Source: Bacteroidota bacterium
GTDB lineage: Bacteria > Bacteroidota > Ignavibacteria > UBA10030 > SZUA-254
Direction of reading: 5' to 3'
Length of the DNA: 64,000 bases
NCBI GenBank assembly: GCA_049515655.1
Contig: JBEKTW010000005.1
Span: forward strand, 22,721-86,720
In this document: positions 9,703 to 54,400 of the stretch, piece by piece
Position numbering within the stretch: position 1 is the stretch's first letter
Layout of the letters: every line of letters starts with the position of its first letter
Translations under genes and position numbers: made by a program
Notes under the pieces: generated by a model
The model's input: only the letters and a program-made list of their open reading frames with translations
The model's database searches: none
Told to the model about the DNA's origin: nothing

Positions 9703-9728
9703 GTTTGAAAATGAATCGGAATTTCCGT
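9703..9728 (+). repeat. left 26-bp direct repeat (att-like) bounding the 9.7-14.9 kb island
   Basis: gtttgaaaatgaatcggaatttccgt occurs exactly here and again at 14836-14861. An exact 26-mer shared by chance in 64 kb is extremely unlikely. Confidence 0.85.
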
Positions 9729-9734
9729 TTGTAG

Positions 9735-9836
9735 TTTTGCCAGAACAAGATAAAAGAATTTATTACGAAGCTGCATATACCGGGAAGTGATCCACGAATC
9801 AAGGAGTTGGAGAAAAAGCTGGGTATCAGTGATTGA
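9735..9836 (+). pseudogene. C-terminal gene remnant (...IKELEKKLGISD*) directly after the left direct repeat
   Basis: A 33-codon open frame with no start codon ends at TGA 9834-9836. Homologous remnants (...FIKELDLEEKDLLKKLGQ*) recur at about 11095-11152 and, truncated, at about 10425-10452. Confidence 0.4.
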
Positions 9837-9863
9837 ATCTGCCGAGATCGTTTCGGTTTTCAC

Positions 9864-9900
9864 AAAGCCGGGCGTTTACAGAGCACCCGGCTTTTTTATT
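9864..9900 (+). terminator. rho-independent terminator-like hairpin with a T-tract; this is cassette repeat a
   Basis: aaagccgggcgtttacagagcacccggcttttttatt has an 8-bp GC stem followed by T6. Related hairpins lie at 10456-10521 and 11181-11210. Confidence 0.6.
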
Positions 9901-9924
9901 GCACATAATTCGTCTGAGACGCCG

Positions 9925-10350
9925 TCAGGTATGAGGAAGATATTTCTTGAGTTCCGCATAGAGTTGTTTTTCGGCTGGCAGGAGGGTCACGTGCGTACTG
10001 CGAGCTATTGCTATGCTTCGGTTCGCTCCAGTTTCCCTCATGTTAACGACACGTATGTAAGACAGAGGCTGCAGAACAGTCTCTAAATCCTCAGTTTTCC
10101 AATGCAGTGCGTCGCATAGTTTTTTCTGTTGTGCTTGCTTGTTTTTGGTAATTTCAAGAGCGTCCATAATACCTGCCTCAAGACATCCTTTGGACGCGGC
10201 GTACTCCAAGAAATCTCGCTCCCGCAAAACCGATGGCTTCCCTTTTTCTACAACTGTAAACGTTGGCGGCTTATCAGATAGTACGGGTTCTGACCGACCG
10301 ACTTCAATTCCCTTCCTCTGCAGACAAATCATGATTTCGCTGAAATTCAT
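9925..10350 (-). CDS. hypothetical protein (island cassette 1)
   Basis: 141 aa ORF in the low-GC island. No family was recognised. Confidence 0.45.
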   Translation of the reverse strand: MNFSEIMICLQRKGIEVGRSEPVLSDKPPTFTVVEKGKPSVLRERDFLEYAASKGCLEAGIMDALEITKNKQAQQKKLCDALHWKTEDLETVLQPLSYIRVVNMRETGANRSIAIARSTHVTLLPAEKQLYAELKKYLPHT

Positions 10351-10424
10351 TTGCGTTCTCCTTTGTCGTTACGAGGTCTTTTCTGATTCGCTCACTATAT
10401 ATTGTGAACTGAATAAACTTACTC

Positions 10425-10530
10425 AAACAAACGGTGAAATTCAAATTCATTAAAAGGCCGGGCCAGTGATTGAATCAAACGAGGGCATTACAGTTAAAAG
10501 CCAGACGTTTTCGGCCCGGCCTTTCATTGC
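10425..10530 (+). repeat. cassette repeat b, a degenerate copy of the gene-remnant plus hairpin unit
   Basis: It carries attcaaattcattaa and cagtgattgaatc, embedded in the ggccgggcc...ggcccggcc hairpin. Confidence 0.6.
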
Positions 10531-10594
10531 GATGTTTCCTGTACTAGGATGGCTTCAACTGAGGGTCATGGTTGATTCTTCCTTAACTGTTTTC

Positions 10595-10837
10595 CTAGGT
10601 GGGGTGCAAGCACGACTGAATCAGATGAGCAAAATCATTACCGCAAGTATGCGCAACTTGCGACTTGAAATGTTTTCCGTCATCATTGAGAGTAATGGTA
10701 GCACAGATATTATCCTTACCATGTCTTTTACAAACAAGCGACGAGATTGCATCATACATCCTCTTGAGCATTGACCCCGGGGGCAATTTGTCCGCGTCAA
10801 CGACTTTGTCACAGTATGTGAGAATAAATTTAATCAT
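10595..10837 (-). CDS. small hypothetical protein (island cassette 2)
   Basis: 80 aa. Its start overlaps the stop of the upstream small membrane ORF by 4 nt (ATGA). Confidence 0.3.
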   Translation of the reverse strand: MIKFILTYCDKVVDADKLPPGSMLKRMYDAISSLVCKRHGKDNICATITLNDDGKHFKSQVAHTCGNDFAHLIQSCLHPT

Positions 10838-11067
10838 AGTGTTCCGCTTTTCTTAGAGAGATATTGTACTACCGAAGTGTATCCGGCACAACACATGAGC
10901 AATGGAAGAAATCCATCGCTAAAAGTTGTAAAGAACCAAGTTGCGATCGGATTAGCTGATACCTTATACACGACTCCCCAAAACCACATCGTGAGAACAT
11001 AAAATATCAAAAAATTTACTGCTTGTGTCGGCTTAGCAGGTGCCCATTTAGTTGGTTCTGCTTGCAC
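10834..11067 (-). CDS. small predicted membrane protein with two hydrophobic helices (island cassette 2)
   Basis: 77 aa with two hydrophobic segments (FLIFYVLTMWFWGVVY and GFLPLLMCCAGY). It is translationally coupled to the 80-aa ORF. Confidence 0.35.
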   Translation of the reverse strand: MQAEPTKWAPAKPTQAVNFLIFYVLTMWFWGVVYKVSANPIATWFFTTFSDGFLPLLMCCAGYTSVVQYLSKKSGTL

Positions 11068-11087
11068 AATATAGCGACAAGGGGTGG

Positions 11088-11213
11088 ATATTCAAATTCA
11101 TCAAGGAGTTGGACTTGGAGGAAAAGGACTTACTTAAGAAGCTGGGGCAGTGATTGAATCAATACGAGGTGGTTTCACGAAGCCGGGGGATTACAGAATG
11201 CTCGGTTTTTTAT
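11088..11213 (+). repeat. cassette repeat c (gene remnant plus hairpin)
   Basis: attcaaattcatcaaggagttgga...aagctggggcagtgattgaatc...gaagccggg...ttacag...ctcggttttttattgc is homologous to unit a at 9790-9900. Confidence 0.65.
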
Positions 11214-11244
11214 TGCGATTATTCTGACTTAGCTAAGGCCAAAA

Positions 11245-11826
11245 TCAAATACGTATCCCTTTTGATTGCACTGCCCCAATGATTGCTTTGATGTCTTCCG
11301 CGCCATAAATCGACGCATCAATTTCACGATTGAATTCTGAAACGAACATGGAGTGCAACACTTTCTCCAGTGTTTCTGTTACGTGATTGAAAAAATCAAC
11401 CTCTATATCTGCATCATACCACACTTCACTGGGATTGAATACGGCTTTCTTATCTATGTGAAAATGAGCCTTGTCTCGCACTCCCTTCAGCTTGTCTGCA
11501 AGAATGTTGATGTCCGCCAGACTCAAACCGTTCTTGACCAGTTCGTCTTCTATGCCTTTCGTGTTGCATTTGTGCAAGTAGAAGAAGGAAGCTACACGTG
11601 TGTGTAAATCCAAAACATTCATTACATGTAAGAACATCGCGTCGTGCAATGCGAAGAATGAGTACGTGAAAATAGACGCGCCCGGTTCGGGAAAGGCCGA
11701 AACATTGGGTGCTATAGTCAGTAACTCAGTAAATGCATTCCTGTAAGAAAGAGCACGACGAAGCTCATAAAGGTTACGAATGAGTGCGCGACTATATGTG
11801 CTAAGTGGCCGGTGTTGGGAAGTCAT
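11245..11826 (-). CDS. hypothetical protein with a HEPN-like R-x4-6-H motif (possible RNase toxin)
   Basis: 193 aa. RDKAHFH lies at about aa 117-123, and the protein is predicted to be helical. No confident family could be assigned. Confidence 0.45.
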   Translation of the reverse strand: MTSQHRPLSTYSRALIRNLYELRRALSYRNAFTELLTIAPNVSAFPEPGASIFTYSFFALHDAMFLHVMNVLDLHTRVASFFYLHKCNTKGIEDELVKNGLSLADINILADKLKGVRDKAHFHIDKKAVFNPSEVWYDADIEVDFFNHVTETLEKVLHSMFVSEFNREIDASIYGAEDIKAIIGAVQSKGIRI

Positions 11827-11894
11827 CTACCTCTCTTGCGAACAAAACAGTTCTTGATTCTATTTCTAATCATTCATTGTCGCCTACCTTCCGT

Positions 11895-12668
11895 TCAAAA
11901 ATCTTCCGCTATGACATCCGCGGTAATGATGCAAGTTTTCAAGATTTCTACGCTTTCATGCCTAGAATCTCTAAAGGTTCTGTCAATAAAATCAATCATT
12001 TCAGGCACTTCGGAATCATCTTTCAGAATGATGTATTTGACATCGTCGGGCGTAAAGCTTAACCTGGATTTGAGAGCTAATTGTTCTTCTGCTGTTTCCC
12101 GCTTGGCCTTGTTTAGAAAGTCCGGCTTGATGAGAAGTCTAAGTTCAGAAGGGATATCATTCGGCACCAGCCTCCACTCCCTTTCGTTGTAGAATCTAAT
12201 GTCTTCTCTGTATGCGTTTTCCCTCCACAATTTCCCCTCATAAGGTTTGACATGACTGACAAATGTGAGTACAGCATCCACTAGTTTGTCTTTCAGCTCC
12301 CTCCTGACTTCCTCCTCTTGCGGATTCGTAGCGTTCAAGTTTTCAAACAAATATTGCAGTTTGGTTTTCTTGTGGACATAGAGAACTGGTGTAACTGAAT
12401 GGTCCATTCCCCACTGTTTGGATAGACCTAATCCGTAGCTCCTATCTCCGTAAAAGTCCAGATGGCTTCTTATTAGGAACAGAGGCAAATCGCAGAAGGA
12501 AATCATAGGAATCGCAAACTCTATCGTTCCATCTTGCCAATTCTCCAAGCAGTAATGTGGTATGAAGCCCTTCGCGAGGATGCCTTTCACCTTGTCAATG
12601 GACGGTGTGAAATGGAAGAGTGTGTTGGAACTTATGTTGACGGACGTCGTTCGGTTGTAGTCTGGCAT
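11895..12668 (-). CDS. AbiGi-like abortive-infection family protein (tentative)
   Basis: 257 aa. N-terminal SNTLFHFTPSIDKVKGILAKGFIPHYCLE. The AbiGi assignment rests only on my memory of that family's N-terminal motif and on the similar size. It is not a checked alignment or database hit and could be wrong. Confidence 0.45.
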   Translation of the reverse strand: MPDYNRTTSVNISSNTLFHFTPSIDKVKGILAKGFIPHYCLENWQDGTIEFAIPMISFCDLPLFLIRSHLDFYGDRSYGLGLSKQWGMDHSVTPVLYVHKKTKLQYLFENLNATNPQEEEVRRELKDKLVDAVLTFVSHVKPYEGKLWRENAYREDIRFYNEREWRLVPNDIPSELRLLIKPDFLNKAKRETAEEQLALKSRLSFTPDDVKYIILKDDSEVPEMIDFIDRTFRDSRHESVEILKTCIITADVIAEDF

Positions 12669-12766
12669 GAAGCACTCACTTCCTCAGTCATTCTTGAATC
12701 GTCACGGCCAGCGAATTTTGTGTGTGCTGGTCGCCCTAAAGTCTGGCCAAAGTCGTCGCTACGTCG

Positions 12767-13690
12767 TTACTTAGTCTCGGTTGCACGATAAGTCTCAATT
12801 AAGAATCGCATAAGTGTGGTTGTCAAGTATATCATGTACTCCAGTTCGGAATCCGAATAGACTCGCTCATCGGCAGGCTCAAAATCGCTGTCGTGCTTAA
12901 CGGCCGTGCTCTGGTACAACGAGAACTGTGTTAGCATAGTAAAATAGTTTTGACGAATCTGAGAGTGAACTCCTTTCTCTTTCATCCATTTGAGCAGCGG
13001 CTCTTTTTGCTTCTCAATCGGAGAATTGTTTCCTAAAACAACCTTCAGAAGGTTCTCAAGTGCAAATCGTAATGAATCTAGGGCTTGGCGGTACATAGAA
13101 GCGTCTTTGGAAACCGCTATGGAGAGTGCTTTGTTATATTCTTTGACGACGTCAGGATATTTTCTGAGCCAAATAGCGTTCTCGTCCACAGCTTCATCAA
13201 GCAGTTTGATACCATCAGGATAGAGCTCCATCTTGCCATCTATGTTCTCAATGCGTCTTATATTTATTCCCGACGAACTTTCGATTGCCGTGTTCAAATT
13301 TGCTATAAGAGATTGAACGGCTGTCTTGAACTCGTCAAGTGTCTCGTAAGAGGCAGATAATTGTTCAAGTGACCAGAAAAGACGCTGCAAGACAAGAATC
13401 AGCTCACTTAGCCCTTGCGCATTTGTAAGATGTTTGATAATACCTTGTCCGATTGCAAGGTATGCTGGGTCCACGTACTCTGAGCCGTTGATTACTGCAA
13501 ACTTTCCCTCAACTGCCGCCACCAGTGACGTAGCTTCAATATCGTATATCATCTCATCAAGGTATTTCAAATCGCTCAGAAAACTACCGACGGCCGTTGA
13601 CACTCTATTACGAAATTCTGAAAATAGCTTCTCTTTTGGGATGACTATTCCCCATCTTTGCATGAAATCATTGGTTGGTGTCTTGCTCAT
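12767..13690 (-). CDS. hypothetical protein, predicted helical, upstream partner of the AbiGi-like gene
   Basis: 307 aa ORF that reads convincingly as coding within the AT-richer island. No family was recognised. Confidence 0.55.
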   Translation of the reverse strand: MSKTPTNDFMQRWGIVIPKEKLFSEFRNRVSTAVGSFLSDLKYLDEMIYDIEATSLVAAVEGKFAVINGSEYVDPAYLAIGQGIIKHLTNAQGLSELILVLQRLFWSLEQLSASYETLDEFKTAVQSLIANLNTAIESSSGINIRRIENIDGKMELYPDGIKLLDEAVDENAIWLRKYPDVVKEYNKALSIAVSKDASMYRQALDSLRFALENLLKVVLGNNSPIEKQKEPLLKWMKEKGVHSQIRQNYFTMLTQFSLYQSTAVKHDSDFEPADERVYSDSELEYMIYLTTTLMRFLIETYRATETK

Positions 13691-13869
13691 GATAAGTCTG
13701 CCGATTCCCGTGCCTTTAATTGTACTTGGCGAATATACAAAAGATTTTGTCCCGTGTCAACAAAGTCTAAATCTATTTTTCTGGCTCGCTCATTGTTTTT
13801 CTTCAATATGAATGAGTAAACTTACCGAAAAAGACAAACATCGTAGCTTTTCGGTGTTATGTGCCGCGA

Positions 13870-14562
13870 TTATTTCTTGTTCAAACCTGTTTGCTGTTTA
13901 ACCGCTGGCGTGTCCGCTTTTATTCTTTCTGGATTTAGCACAAGCACTCTTGTTGTGTCACGAAAAGCGTTCATATTCGTAATGAGCACATCTCTCTGAG
14001 TTTTGTAGGTGACAAATTGGAAAAAACCCATCAAGAGACTTACAACAATTGATACAACAGCAATCCGAAATGTCAATTGTTGGGCTTGTTTTCTATCGGC
14101 CGCCTCTTGTTTTCTGTCCGCGGCGTCTTGAGCAAAGCGCTGTTCATCTAAGGTTAAGAAGCCACGGTCAACAAAATCAGATAACTCTGGTAGAGGGGCG
14201 ACATAAAATCCATCGTAAGACCGGATTATCCCCATGATTTCATGTTCCGCGTCGTTCTGACTAGCAAATATAGGTAAGAGGCGCACGCCCTTACTTGCCC
14301 TGCGTAACCTTGTTACAAGCCCTTCTCGTTCTAATCGTGACCAAAGTGATATGAATTCAGTAAGCTCTGAAATAGTTTTGTCACGATTCTTAGGAATATA
14401 ACCGGTTGTCTTAGGGTCACAAACCAAATCCCATCCAGGATAAGATTGCTGGAGGATGAAACGTTCAAAGTCACCGAACTGCAAGAGAAATTTTTCAGTG
14501 TCAGTTGCTTTGTTTTGCAGCCAGGCTCGTACAATCTCTTGTTGAATACTACTCAGTTTCAT
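13870..14562 (-). CDS. hypothetical protein with a single C-terminal transmembrane helix
   Basis: 230 aa. The C-terminal IAVVSIVVSLLMGFFQFV is hydrophobic and is preceded by a charged Lys/Gln-rich linker (DRKQEAADRKQ). Confidence 0.5.
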   Translation of the reverse strand: MKLSSIQQEIVRAWLQNKATDTEKFLLQFGDFERFILQQSYPGWDLVCDPKTTGYIPKNRDKTISELTEFISLWSRLEREGLVTRLRRASKGVRLLPIFASQNDAEHEIMGIIRSYDGFYVAPLPELSDFVDRGFLTLDEQRFAQDAADRKQEAADRKQAQQLTFRIAVVSIVVSLLMGFFQFVTYKTQRDVLITNMNAFRDTTRVLVLNPERIKADTPAVKQQTGLNKK

Positions 14563-14835
14563 ATCGCTTTACTCCATGTTGTGCTGAGCAAACTTACCCA
14601 AACACGCTGTAAATATCAAGTCCACTTGTAATTCTGACCAATCGCGTTCTGAGCTTAGACCGAGGAATGCGTTTCGTGTTTGGGCAGGCAGAAAACAATA
14701 AACCCGTTCAGAGACCTCCTTCCTGTTCCCAAACAGGCCTTATTGCTCAAAACACTGTAGGACAAAATGTAGGATGATTCGCACAAATCCTGCAATTTCC
14801 CGCATTGCAGTCGTTCAAGAGTGCTTTCCCATACC

Positions 14836-14861
14836 GTTTGAAAATGAATCGGAATTTCCGT
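14836..14861 (+). repeat. right 26-bp direct repeat (att-like) bounding the island
   Basis: Exact copy of 9703-9728. Confidence 0.85.
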
Positions 14862-49172: not shown

Positions 49173-50000
49173 ATGGCTGATTGGCAGAGTCGACACATCG
49201 ATGAGACGGATTTCCTGGTTGTCGATGTTGAGACGACAGGGCTCTCCCCCGATACGGGCGACCGGGTGTGTGAGATTGGAGCGATCAAAATCCGCGGCGG
49301 GGCGGTGGTCGACACGCTCAGCAGTCTGGTTAATCCCTGCCGGCCCATCTCGGCAGGAGCGTACGCGGTCAACAGGATTTCTCCGGCAATGGTCGCCGAC
49401 GCCCCGGAGTTCCATCAGCTCGCAGAACGCCTGCTTCAGATGATGGACGACTCGGTACTCGTTGCGTATAATGCCCCTTTCGACGTCTCGTTTCTCGACA
49501 GTGAACTCCGCCTCGCGGGCCATCCGCGCATTCGCGCGAAGGTCGTCGACGCGCTGGCGATCGCGCGTCAGCTTCTTCCGGGAATTGGCAGATACCCTCA
49601 GGAGAACGTCGCCCAATTCCTGGGGATCCCGTTTCCCGTGAAGCACCGTGCCCTCGACGACGTGATGGTGACATCCAGAATCTTCATCTTCTTTGTCTCT
49701 ATGATGAAAGCATACGACCTTACCTCCGTCGCCGACCTCGGGCGCAGGGATCTTTCAAGCGTCATGCAGACGAAGCGTATCAGCATCGTCCAGGAGGCGA
49801 TGATCAAAGGTTCACATCTCTGGATAAAGTACCTCTCTCCTACAAACGCAGAAATTACCGACCGCATCGTTACTCCCAAAGACCTCGTCACCGAACAAAC
49901 ACCCTACCTGTTTGCATATTGTCATTCGGCAAAGGCTGAGAGAAATTTTCGGATCGATAGAATCCTGGACTTAAGGTTGGTACAAAAAGTGTCTGCCTGA
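49173..50000 (+). CDS. DnaQ-like DEDDh 3'-5' exonuclease fused to a C-terminal WYL-like domain
   Basis: Exo I FLVVDVETTGL, Exo III HRALDDV. The C-terminus WIKYLSPTNAEITDRIVTPKDLV...YLFAYCHSAKAERNFRIDRI matches the WYL-domain consensus, with the I.Y...R.V.P...YL.A.C...R.FRIDRI pattern recovered. Confidence 0.7.
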   Translation: MADWQSRHIDETDFLVVDVETTGLSPDTGDRVCEIGAIKIRGGAVVDTLSSLVNPCRPISAGAYAVNRISPAMVADAPEFHQLAERLLQMMDDSVLVAYNAPFDVSFLDSELRLAGHPRIRAKVVDALAIARQLLPGIGRYPQENVAQFLGIPFPVKHRALDDVMVTSRIFIFFVSMMKAYDLTSVADLGRRDLSSVMQTKRISIVQEAMIKGSHLWIKYLSPTNAEITDRIVTPKDLVTEQTPYLFAYCHSAKAERNFRIDRILDLRLVQKVSA

Positions 50001-50004
50001 TGGA

Positions 50005-50095
50005 ATCACCAAAACTGTCTGAACCTGGATTTTGGGGACTAAAGGATGATCACGATTTCTTGATCGCGGTAATCTCATATTCTGCAACTCGAGAC
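50005..50095 (+). repeat. partial unit of the ~107-bp tandem repeat
   Basis: ...caccaaaactgtctgaacctggattttggggactaaaggat...gcggtaatctcat corresponds to the second half of the unit. Confidence 0.6.
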
Positions 50096-50290
50096 ATCTG
50101 AATTATCGACGGATGTTGCTCATGAGAACAAGACCACACCTGTCATTCCCGCACGTTTTAAGCGGGAATCTATTTAAGATGCGCGATTCAAGTCCCGCCT
50201 TTTGGATTCCGCTTACGTAGGCGGGATTCTGAAAAGCGGAACATTCGGGCATGACAGGCTTTTTGATTTTTCAGATGTCTCAAATCATGG
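50088..50290 (-). mobile_element. MITE-like element related to 24962-25140, inserted into the tandem array
   Basis: Ends gagacatctgaa... and ...tttttcagatgtctc. Inner palindromes: gtcattcccgcacgttttaagcgggaatc and ggcatgacagg. Confidence 0.6.
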
Positions 50291-50385
50291 TTCAGACAAC
50301 GGTGGCATCATCAAAACTGTCTGAACCTTGATTTTGGGGATTATAGGATTTCCTTGATAGTTTAATAAGAGCAATCTCATAAGCT
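50281..50385 (+). repeat. full unit of the ~107-bp tandem repeat
   Basis: Contains the 10-bp hairpin ggttcagaca-N20-tgtctgaacc. Confidence 0.7.
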
Positions 50386-50514
50386 TCCTTCGGGTCCCGC
50401 AGAGCCAAGTGAAACGGAAAAATTGATAGAACATCAGAATATTATGAAATGACAAAGCCCGATTCTCTTGTTCCAAATTAGCGAATTGAACGATCCATTC
50501 TTCTCATCAGAGGA

Positions 50515-51030
50515 TTGAAAATCATGCTTGATAGAGACCTCGCCGAACTCTACGGAGTTCAAACGCGAGATCTTAATAAGGCAGTACGACGAAATAGCGA
50601 TCGTTTTCCATCTGATTTTATGTTCCAGCTCACTCCCGAGGAATATAAAAACTTGATGTTCCAATTTGGAACATCAAGATGGGGCGGCACAAGGAAGCTT
50701 CCCTACGCTTTTACAGAGTTAGGCGTAGCGATGCTCTCCAGTGTATTGAACAGCGAGCGAGCCGTCCGCGTAAACATACAGATTATGCGTGCATTTGTGG
50801 CACTTCGGGAGATCCTTGCTACCCACAAAGACCTTGCCCGAAAATTAGAAGAAATGGAAAAGAAATACGATCAGCAGTTCAAAGTGGTGTTCGAGGCAAT
50901 GCGGCGACTAATAATTGCTTCTGGCAGTGCGCAAGACAAGCCAAAACGCGAAATTGGATTTAAAGTTGGAGAACCAAATGTTCTCTATACACCTCGAAAA
51001 AAAGACAAAGTGATGAGAAGGAAATATTAA
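50515..51030 (+). CDS. ORF6N-domain (KilA-N-like) DNA-binding protein of the kind common on mobile elements
   Basis: The N-terminal [39 protein letters not shown] matches the ORF6N consensus. 171 aa. Confidence 0.75.
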
Positions 51031-51064
51031 TGACCGAAGAATTTAAACAAATGGTAATCTTATA

Positions 51065-51440
51065 ATCATGCGAATCATGGTTCGAACAACGGCGGCATCA
51101 CCGAAACCGTCTGAACCTTGATTTTGGGGATTATAGGATTTCCATGATTGTTTAATCGCGGTAGTCTCACGATCATGCGAATCATGGTTCAGACAACGAC
51201 GGTATCACTGAAACTGTCTGAACCTTGATTTTGAGGATTATAGGATTTCCATGATTGTTTAATCACGGTAATTTCATAATTATGTGAATCACGGTGCAGA
51301 CAACGACAGTATAACCGAGACTGTCTGAACCTTGATTTTGGGGATTAAAGGATGACCATGATTTTGTAATCAAGGTAATCTTATAATCATGCGAATCACG
51401 GTTCAGACAATGGATCCCGCTTGCTTCCCTCCTCACAACT
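51065..51440 (+). repeat. three and a half tandem copies of the ~107-bp hairpin repeat, immediately upstream of (and overlapping) the 5' end of the next gene
   Basis: Unit starts fall at about 51065, 51172, 51280 and 51386, a period of 106-108 bp. Each unit contains ggttcagaca...tgtctgaacc, gattttggggattataggatttccatgattgtttaatc and cggtaatct. Confidence 0.85.
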
Positions 51441-51484
51441 CAGTATCTTGTTGCCTGTTCTACCACACTTACAAAGGAACTGCC

Positions 51485-54400
51485 ATGAACCGTAACCGCT
51501 ATTTCGCTTTGCTTCTGAGTATTCTGTTTTCTGTCGGAATGCTCCTCGCCCAACCCACGAAGTCGGATTCCCCGGCTCCCAAAGATACGGCCAAAAAATC
51601 GGACACCAAATGGGACGTTTCTGCCAAGCATGGTCCTTCTCAGGACATTGAGTTCGAAACGGACGAGGGGACGTGGATCTCAGTCGATGTCAGCCCTGAC
51701 GGCAAACACATAGTCTTCGACCTCCTCGGCGATATCTATATCATGCCCATCAGCGGCGGCGACGCGAAGCTGCTCTGCGGAGGACCGGCGTACGAAGTGG
51801 AGCCAAGGTTTAGCCCGGACGGGAAGAAAATTTCATTCACCAGCGACCGCGATGGCTGCAATAACATCTGGATGATGGATGCCGACGGAAAGAATCCAAA
51901 GCAGCTCACTCATGAAAAAGAGCGCCAGACAAACAACGCGGTCTGGTCGCCGGATGGTCAGTTCATCGTCGCGCGGAAGCACTACCGCAACGAACGCTCG
52001 CTCGGCGCGGGCGAAATGTGGATGTATCACATCGGCGGCGGCGACGGCCTGCAGCTCACGAAACGCCGCAACTGGGAACAGGATGCTGGCGAACCATGCC
52101 TCTCGCCCGACGGCCGTTACCTCTATTACAGCGAAGATGTGAGTCCCGGCGGCGGTTTTCAGTACAACAAGGATCCGAACGGAACAATTTACGTCATACA
52201 GCGACTCGACATCCAGACCGGAAAAACGGAACAGTTCATTCACACTGAGGGCGGCGCCGTGCGCCCCCAGGTTTCACCCGACGGAAAAACGATCGCTTTC
52301 GTCAAACGCGTCCGTCTTAAGACAGTCCTTTACACGTTTGATGTCGAGAGCGGCAAAGAGACGCCGGTCTACGACAATCTCAGCCGTGACGCCCAGGAAA
52401 CCTGGGCGATGTTCGGCGTCCATCCGGGCTTTTCCTGGATGCCGGACGGGAAGCGCATCGTCATCTCAGCCAAAGGTCACATCTGGATAATCGATGTGCG
52501 CACGAAGGAAGCGACGCAAATTTCTTTCAAAGTGCACGTCAGGCAGACGATCACCAACGCAGTCCGTTTTCCCCAGGAAGTTGCGCCGGAAAAATTCGAC
52601 GTCAAAATGCTTCGCTGGGTGACCGTTTCCCCCGACCAGAAATCCGTCATCTATAATGCTCTCGGCAAATTATGGATACGATCCCTCCCGCAGGGAACTC
52701 CGAAGCGCCTCACCAACGATGAAAAACGATTTGAACTATTTCCTGCGTTCTCGGCTGACGGGAAATGGATTGTGTACGCGACGTGGAACGACGACGAGCA
52801 GGGTTCTCTCTGGAAGGTCAGAGCTGACGGGTCATCCCAAACGAAACTGACTGTCCGCAAAGGACATTACGTCGAACCGGCATTCTCACGCGACGGATCA
52901 AGAATCGTTTTCAAGAGGATAGGCGGAGATAATCTCCGCGGCGACGAATACACGCACGAGCAAGGCATTTATTGCATGCCGGCATCGGGCGGCAAAGCAA
53001 CTCTCATTACGGAAGAAGGCTCGCGGCCTATGTTCAACAAAAACGGGGACAGGATTTTTCTCCTTTCCGGTGAGGGCGATAAGACCGCTTTTGTCAGTGT
53101 CGGGCTCAGCGGCGAGCAACGGCGTGTTCACCTTCTCTCCGACAACGCCGAAGAAATCGTCCCGTCGCCCGATGAGCAATGGGTCGCATTCGTTGAGCGA
53201 TTCAACGCCTACATCGCAGTCTTTCCCAAAACCGGACAGGCGGTCATGATCGGTCCGGGCACGTCGGATTACCCGGTCAAACGGGTGACCCGGGACGCCG
53301 GAACGTACCTCCACTGGTCGCCCGACAGTAAGGCGCTTCACTGGTCGCTCGGACCGGAACTGTATTCCCGCGACCTGACGAACACGTTCAAATTCGTCGA
53401 TGGAGCTCCCGATAGCGTTCAGGAAAAACCGGATACAACAGGACTCAACATCAGTTTTTCGGCATTGACCGACAACCCCACCGGACCCGTCGCCCTCGTC
53501 GGAGCCACCCTGATTACGATGAAAGGCGATGAGGTCATTCCGGATGCGACGATTCTCATTGAGCGAAACCGCATCAAAGCCGTCGGACCGTCTGCGAGCG
53601 TACAGGTTCCCGCGAACGCCTACAAACTCGACGTAAGAGGGAAGTACATCATGCCGGGGATCATCGACGTCCACGCGCACATTCCCACCGGAAGCAGCAA
53701 CATCGTTCCCCAGACCCATTGGCCGTATTACGTCAACCTCGCGTTTGGCGTTACGACAGCGCACGACCCTTCGTCTGGCACCGAAATGGTCTTTTCAAAC
53801 TCCGAGCTGCTGAAAGCCGGAATCCTCGTGGGACCGCGACTCTATTCAACCGGCACGATTCTGTACGGCGCCGAAGCGCCGTTCAAGGCGATCATCAACA
53901 ACTTCGACGATGCGATGTCTCACCTGCGACGCATGAAGGCGGTCGGAGCGTTCTCCGTAAAAAGCTATAACCAGCCGCGGCGCGATGAACGCCAGCAAAT
54001 CATTGAAGCGGCCCGTGACCTCAAAATGATGGTCGTGCCCGAAGGCGGCTCGACATTCTTCTGGAACGTCTCGATGATTCTGGACGGCCATACGGGGATC
54101 GAGCATTCACTTCCGGTCTCTCCTCTTTACAAGGACGTGCTCACGCTCTTCGGCAAGAGCCAGACCGGTTACACTCCGACTTTGATCGTAAGCTATGGCG
54201 GATTGTGGGGAGAGAACTACTGGTTCATGAAGACGAAAGTCTGGGAAAACGAACGTTTACTCAAATTTACTCCGCGGGAAATAATCGATGCGCGATCCCG
54301 CCGCCGGTTGATGGCAGAGGAAGACGACTTCAACTACATCGACAACGCGCGCGCCGTAAAAGCGGCCCTGGACGCCGGCACGAAGGTTCAGCTCGGCGCA

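Follow-up and report, generated by a model that had tools for sequence, protein, structure and literature searches.

An AbiGi gene with HEPN-type and PDC-S32-type neighbors on a 5.1-kb islet of a Bacteroidota genome

Described systems and the three-gene locus

The abortive infection system AbiG is known from Lactococcus plasmid pCI750 and its homologs; the major tail protein of the phage triggers its resistance (PMC12184496). The canonical gene pair, AbiGi immediately followed by an AbiGii of about 400 aa (PF16873), was found on plasmids of Bacillus, Niallia, Lactococcus, and Enterococcus. Here we describe an AbiGi gene with other neighbors, located in a 64,000-nt stretch (hereafter the window) of contig JBEKTW010000005.1 of a Bacteroidota metagenome-assembled genome (MAG). 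It is the middle one of three minus-strand genes (locus tags ABSF91_05095..05105) encoding a 307-aa protein, p307 (13690..12767), the AbiGi protein of 257 aa (12668..11895), and a 193-aa protein, p193 (11826..11245). All three open reading frames (ORFs) are intact and of full length, separated by spacers of 98 bp (p307–AbiGi) and 68 bp (AbiGi–p193). Each of them has homologs in public data; these are thus real genes and not chance ORFs.

An earlier sequence-only reading of the window had placed three co-directional genes in an island and proposed that they form a novel abortive infection module. The position, size, and common direction of the genes were borne out exactly. As to the module, we favor, with moderate confidence, another reading: three defense-type genes that are each mobile and stand alone, stacked compactly on an acquired islet and probably co-transcribed. 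Relatives of each gene occur without the other two, which argues for an ordinary stack of independent defense genes instead of a new three-part system. If this reading is true, the locus is a case of routine defense-gene clustering. What is new in it amounts to diverged representatives of families already known or proposed as candidates, and to some practical points of annotation.

Several described families bear on the three proteins. PF10899, the family of AbiGi, was placed among the ADP-ribosyltransferase (ART)-like families near DarT and DUF2971, with the motifs R/H, S-x-S (often C-x-S), and E-x-E (bioRxiv 10.1101/2024.07.30.605764). Lactococcal AbiGi and AbiGii were each non-toxic when singly expressed in E. 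coli (PMC3985639), so the “antitoxin” label of Pfam is a prediction and not a finding. AbiU2 was defined as a HEPN family that has no fixed partner and occurs in restriction–modification (R-M) and Sel1 contexts (Anantharaman et al. 2013, PMC3710099), and a 2026 review reports a local similarity of lactococcal AbiUii, a HEPN protein, to AbiGii (PMC13064643). PDC-S32 is a single-gene phage-defense candidate family of PADLOC, for which no experimental validation was present in the literature searched.

Family assignment of the three proteins

Judged by profile matches, the 257-aa protein is a bona fide member of the AbiGi family, as its N-terminus and size had led the sequence-only reading to suppose. 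It matched Pfam PF10899 (E 6.6e-30, 104.9 bits vs. a gathering score of 22.4), the PADLOC AbiGi profile over its full length (E 2.5e-46), and phrog_13416 (E 1.9e-45). With 51.6 bits against a cut-off of 300 bits, it fell below the NCBIfam AbiGI equivalog model NF042957 and is not an equivalog of lactococcal AbiGI. A scan of metagenomes with the single protein as the query returned nothing, and the relatives emerged with an alignment query; phage records contained no AbiGi relative at E ≤ 1e-5.

Conservation was analyzed in 77 aligned sequences, comprising the window protein, 72 relatives from metagenomes, and 4 AbiGi proteins from plasmids, some of the latter from canonical AbiGi–AbiGii pairs. 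H19 was conserved in 96% of them, and [C/S]57-F58-C59-D60, H69, Y73-G74, and E162-x-E164-W165-R166 were all conserved in about 100%. Each of these residues is present in the window protein, which has the variant S57-F-C59-D60 at position [C/S]57. The conserved residues match the ART-like pattern in the form H / C-or-S-x-C / E-x-E, and the ART-like assignment of AbiGi draws on the literature and on this agreement of motifs. Since every invariant ART-like residue is kept, the protein may be an active NAD+-dependent modifying enzyme that a phage cue would switch on. The literature groups AbiGi with DarT and DUF2971 in the ART superfamily, and the ExE motif is intact here; in contrast to DarTG, no macrodomain (DarG-like) antitoxin is present at the locus, and the likeness is known from sequence motifs and the literature.

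No match to p193 was obtained in direct scans of Pfam (E ≤ 1), NCBIfam, PHROGs, and PADLOC, and a word-indexed search retrieved two homologs only. With the profile built from p193 and these two homologs, 288 representative clusters were retrieved at E ≤ 0.001, most of them proteins of 175–205 aa that stand alone. When 108 members were scanned singly, 82 matched PF18734 (HEPN_AbiU2; best E 8.5e-13), and other families were matched by at most one member each. The membership of p193 in PF18734 is thus transitive, because most of its relatives match this family and p193 itself does not. The sequence-only reading had pointed to a HEPN-type motif, RDKAHFH, which corresponds to R117-x5-H123. R117, H121, F122, H123, and D125 of the RDKxHFHxD block were invariant in 92 homologs, as were R17 and E21 of the first helix in 92 sequences; across the 108 sequences, R117 and H123 were at least 90% conserved. 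A helical-bundle HEPN fold was predicted for p193, with 7ae2, 5yep, and 8xdj among the best structural matches.

The matches of family members to PF18734, together with the conserved motif, indicate that the HEPN guess was right and that the clade can be named as AbiU2; p193 is, by homology and predicted fold, a minimal stand-alone HEPN domain of this clade. It would act as a dimeric, metal-independent RNase whose triggered RNA cutting may abort infection. With HEPN_AbiU2 (AbiU2 of Lactococcus plasmid pND001), p193 shares the HEPN fold, the R-x5-H motif, and variable defense-linked neighborhoods. Unlike it, p193 is too divergent for the Pfam model, consists of a minimal domain of about 190 aa, has no AbiU1 neighbor, and is not represented in PADLOC v2; a minimal AbiU2-type family of about 290 representative clusters lies below the Pfam threshold and outside PADLOC. 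No relative of p193 was found in plasmid records. The structural matches, and the concept of a HEPN RNase beside a modifying enzyme, recall the HEPN–MNT type VII toxin–antitoxin systems; in contrast to these, no MNT is present here (Pfam and NCBIfam gave no nucleotidyltransferase domain in any island protein), the neighboring enzyme is the ART-like AbiGi, and the pairing is not conserved.

Of the earlier description of p307 as a helical protein of unknown family, the first half stood, since the protein is predicted to be almost all-helical, and the second did not. Residues 165–301 matched positions 107–233 of the 237-position PADLOC profile PDC-S32 (E 1.7e-28), and the N-terminal ~165 residues gave no match to the first ~106 positions of that profile. 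Two parts can thus be distinguished: a PDC-S32-type, putatively HEPN-like C-terminal domain (residues ~165–305) and an N-terminal helical domain that is confined to a small family and may serve as a sensor or regulatory module. The word-indexed search returned 11 homologs, so this subfamily is very small. The conserved C-terminal motif is Y-Q260-N-x-A-V-K-H266 (Q260-x5-H266); R-x4-6-H does not occur, as no arginine is conserved at the motif position. The HEPN–MNT structures PDB 7ae2, 5yep, and 8xdj also match the p307 model, and a Foldseek search of the PDB with p307 was uninformative.

We tentatively assign a HEPN-like character to the C-terminal domain of p307, which is unlikely to be a canonical RNase; proteins of the PDC-S32 type seem to have a HEPN-like domain that lacks the catalytic arginine. 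Profile comparison of p307 and p193 revealed no relationship between them. The sole PDB sequence match of the p307 profile, a designed coiled coil, was judged spurious. With PDC-S32, p307 has in common its C-terminal ~135 residues and homologs that are single genes in variable defense-rich contexts; it differs in its N-terminal domain and in the very small size of its subfamily.

Gene neighborhoods of relatives and the place of AbiGii

Gene neighborhoods were compared for 34 p193-family loci in genomes, the 80 metagenomic AbiGi loci nearest in sequence (30–43% identity), and 6 contexts of the p307 family. The 34 p193-family loci, which come from genomes of different species, contained neither AbiGi nor a p307 relative (tblastn, phmmer), and the 88 proteins flanking them included no AbiGi according to Pfam and PADLOC scans. 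No neighbor family was present in more than 2–3 of these 34 loci. Conversely, family hidden Markov models applied to all flanking ORFs of the 80 AbiGi loci detected no p193-like and no p307-like gene. All-against-all clustering of the AbiGi neighbors grouped near-duplicate contigs only and gave no recurrent partner. The immediate neighbors were mixed (GNAT, cyclase, DUF4062, metallo-beta-lactamase, lipoprotein), and several AbiGi genes had opposite-strand ORFs on both sides.

The p307 homologs stood next to a DUF4238 gene, an unrelated 200-aa protein, AbiEii, a PUA-like gene with a type I R-M methylase, or hypothetical genes of a Clostridium plasmid, and the six independent contexts had no neighbor in common. 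In one Bacteroidetes MAG (JAHBUR010000006.1, locus L001, 8001–10334), a DUF4238 gene starts 11 bp behind a p307 homolog of 42% identity, and an overlapping ORF of 147 aa comes next; so tight a layout could mean a true partnership in that branch of the p307 family. Relatives split by frameshifts or truncated were observed for p193 (L026, 1249–1799) and for p307 (L007, 516–1416, and L135, 3471–4336), which suggests frequent decay in both families.

In sum of pairs, no two of the three families co-occurred in any other locus examined, and the new three-gene module proposed from the sequence is not supported as a functional system. Known or candidate defense genes near the homologs included Dpd, Dnd/Ssp, mads, PARIS, Lamassu, bSEFIR, Avs, DRT, and several PDC candidates. 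With neighbors that are variable and rich in defense genes, each family behaves as a solitary resident of defense islands, and each of the three proteins would act independently. A large clade of AbiGi circulates without AbiGii; such proteins are missed or mislabeled by the “antitoxin” label of Pfam and by the two-gene rule of defense finders.

The absence of AbiGii from the locus and the presence of different flanking partners, both noted earlier from the sequence, held under direct comparison. PF16873 matched none of the island proteins, and iterated searching from an AbiGii seed detected no AbiGii at the 80 AbiGi loci. Because of the reported similarity of AbiUii to AbiGii, p193 was tested as a cryptic AbiGii-like partner: a 4-sequence AbiGii alignment gave an hhalign probability of 0.6% with the p193 family and of 0.2% with the p307 family, and comparisons of single sequences were also negative, so neither protein was retained as a hidden AbiGii. 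The locus shares with AbiG a full-length AbiGi, its invariant residues, and a mobile defense-type context; unlike AbiG, it has no AbiGii adjacent or elsewhere in the island, its flanking genes are unrelated to AbiGii, and its AbiGi belongs to a generally solo clade. In the absence of AbiGii, it should not be filed as AbiG. The 162-aa gene following the closest plasmid AbiGi (Shewanella pS18501) was compared with p193 and was not p193-like.

Another AbiGi neighbor was observed on E. coli plasmids of about 111 kb, where the gene of a 403-aa protein starts 26 bp behind AbiGi (pUTAK-6-1, NZ_CP157149.1, locus L047, 3983–6042, and about 45 similar plasmids). This protein had no PF16873 match and only a weak HSDR_N-like signal. 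It possibly represents a distinct AbiGi-partner pairing, widespread on enterobacterial plasmids of this size. The pairing of E. coli AbiGi with an unrelated protein indicates that partner replacement happens.

Such replacement is the premise of a rival explanation, in which AbiGi and the downstream p193 form a partner-swapped AbiG-like pair with the HEPN protein in the place of AbiGii. AbiGi would then sense or regulate and the HEPN RNase would kill, or, by analogy with MNT–HEPN, the ART-like enzyme would covalently restrain the HEPN toxin. The position of p193, 68 bp downstream on the same strand, is that of AbiGii; AbiGi partners vary by lineage, the review mentioned above likens a HEPN protein locally to AbiGii, and RiboL-PSP-type HEPN proteins made up 2 of 106 AbiGi neighbors. 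We nevertheless consider this pair unlikely in view of the profile–profile probability of 0.6%, the count of zero for AbiGi at the 34 p193-family loci and for p193-like genes at the 80 AbiGi loci, and the 167 bp of sequence upstream of the closest p193 homolog (50% identity), which do not contain the C-terminus of AbiGi.

A broader form of this idea, which we hold to be quite improbable, joins the ART-like AbiGi with one or both of the flanking HEPN proteins in a lineage-specific system with swapped partners. AbiGi might, for instance, ADP-ribosylate p193 and keep it silent until a phage cue, as an ART–HEPN analogue of the MNT–HEPN type VII systems, and p307, lacking the catalytic arginine, could be a sensor or decoy. 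If true, such cooperation of ART and HEPN would amount to a new regulatory logic for HEPN toxins.

Transcription signals and the acquired islet

The three genes are probably co-transcribed from one upstream element, as a shared 5′ motif occurs, among the three, before p307 only, no terminator-like site interrupts the genes, and a 3′ element follows p193. On the minus strand, the 5′ motif reads GTAAGTTTRYTCA over 13–23 nt and contains the string TAnnTTT[G/A]; its plus-strand form TGARYAAACTTAC has 3 occurrences in 64 kb vs. 0.2 expected, all of them in the island. The copy belonging to p307 (13813–13835, minus strand, GTCTTTTTCGGTAAGTTTACTCA, repeat family D1) lies about 125 nt upstream of the start of p307. 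The other copies (10410–10432 and 14585–14607, minus strand) precede the island genes p141 and p230, and all three sit 60–125 nt upstream of the respective starts. Within the window, the motif is absent before AbiGi and before p193. It could be an island-specific promoter/operator or a cassette boundary.

A sigma-70-like promoter match (13732..13760, minus strand, TTGACA-17-TATATT, 11/12 positions) lies some 40 nt before the ATG of p307; the match is to the consensus only, and the regional total of such sites is not above that of shuffled sequence. No terminator-like site was found on the minus strand between p307, AbiGi, and p193. The 3′ element has three copies (9740–9930, 10400–10560, and 11050–11245), the last one directly downstream of p193 on the minus strand. 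Alignment of these copies delimits an element of about 110 nt, with the hairpin GCCGGG..CCCGGCTTT followed by TTGATTCAATCACTG-CCCAGC; its core had 3 matches vs. 0.21 expected. Each of them trails one of three consecutive gene units, so that the island is built like a series of cassettes. Read on the plus strand, every copy forms the end of a small ORF (...KELEKKLG..*) without a start codon. Rfam matched no known RNA in the island, and a single match of the 3′ core in a viral contig was attributed to chance, its flanks being unalignable.

This layout speaks for a three-component abortive infection system, in which p307 would be the sensor or scaffold, AbiGi the enzyme, and p193 the RNase effector, all of them required. 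The arrangement is operon-like, the 5′ motif and the sigma-70-like promoter precede p307 only, no internal terminator was detected, one 3′ element follows p193, and all three ORFs are intact. Such a system is quite unlikely, given that no family pair recurs at other loci and that the relatives of p307 belong to a single-gene candidate family of PADLOC. The island is present in two more public assemblies with 100% nucleotide identity, so these copies belong to the strain of the window and are not independent evidence.

Certain points weigh against the favored stack of solo defense genes. Co-direction, close spacing, and one apparent 5′ and one 3′ element fit a genuine operon-encoded system as well. 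AbiGi partners are swapped between lineages (AbiGii in Bacillota, the 403-aa protein in E. coli), and absence of a partner elsewhere is thus compatible with a lineage-specific partnership. For p193 and p307, the nearest relatives lie on very short contigs, so only part of their context is visible. The stack does not explain what keeps solo ART and HEPN effectors harmless when they are constitutively encoded. Finally, lactococcal AbiGi has, to our knowledge, been shown to work only together with AbiGii.

The island is a horizontally acquired islet of 5.1 kb, as evidenced by its GC content (0.42–0.45 vs. 0.53–0.57 in the flanks) and by a 26-bp direct repeat, GTTTGAAAATGAATCGGAATTTCCGT (repeat family D6, 100% identity, spacing 5133), with the left copy at 9703–9728 and the right copy at 14836–14861, 25 bp upstream of the AMMECR1 gene start. 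Every island gene is on the minus strand. A phosphoglucosamine-mutase-like gene adjoins the islet on one side, and an AMMECR1/Memo gene pair on the other. Gene calls and family scans identified no tRNA, integrase, or transposase within 9703–14861.

With no recombinase left, the trio might be inactive in defense, either as cargo of a degenerate mobile element, inert or in decay, or as genes serving that element, for example through addiction or stabilization. The frameshifted or truncated relatives of p193 and p307 elsewhere and the lack of experimental validation for PDC-S32 in the searched literature are in line with such a fate, and the three full-length ORFs with every family-invariant residue intact speak against it; we consider it very unlikely. 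The stack of stand-alone defense-type genes remains the preferred reading.

Another gene of the islet, p230 (13870–14562, minus strand, 230 aa), which has its own copy of the 5′ motif, encodes a C-terminal hydrophobic helix and found no family match in any of the libraries scanned. It carries a tandem 21-bp duplication (14085–14126), so that AADRKQE is encoded twice. Outside the islet, a second GC dip (0.44–0.48) at 50000–52000 of the window may be another small insertion; the 171-aa ORF inside it (50515–51030) has an N-terminus that we take to resemble a domain of the ORF6N/KilA-N type.

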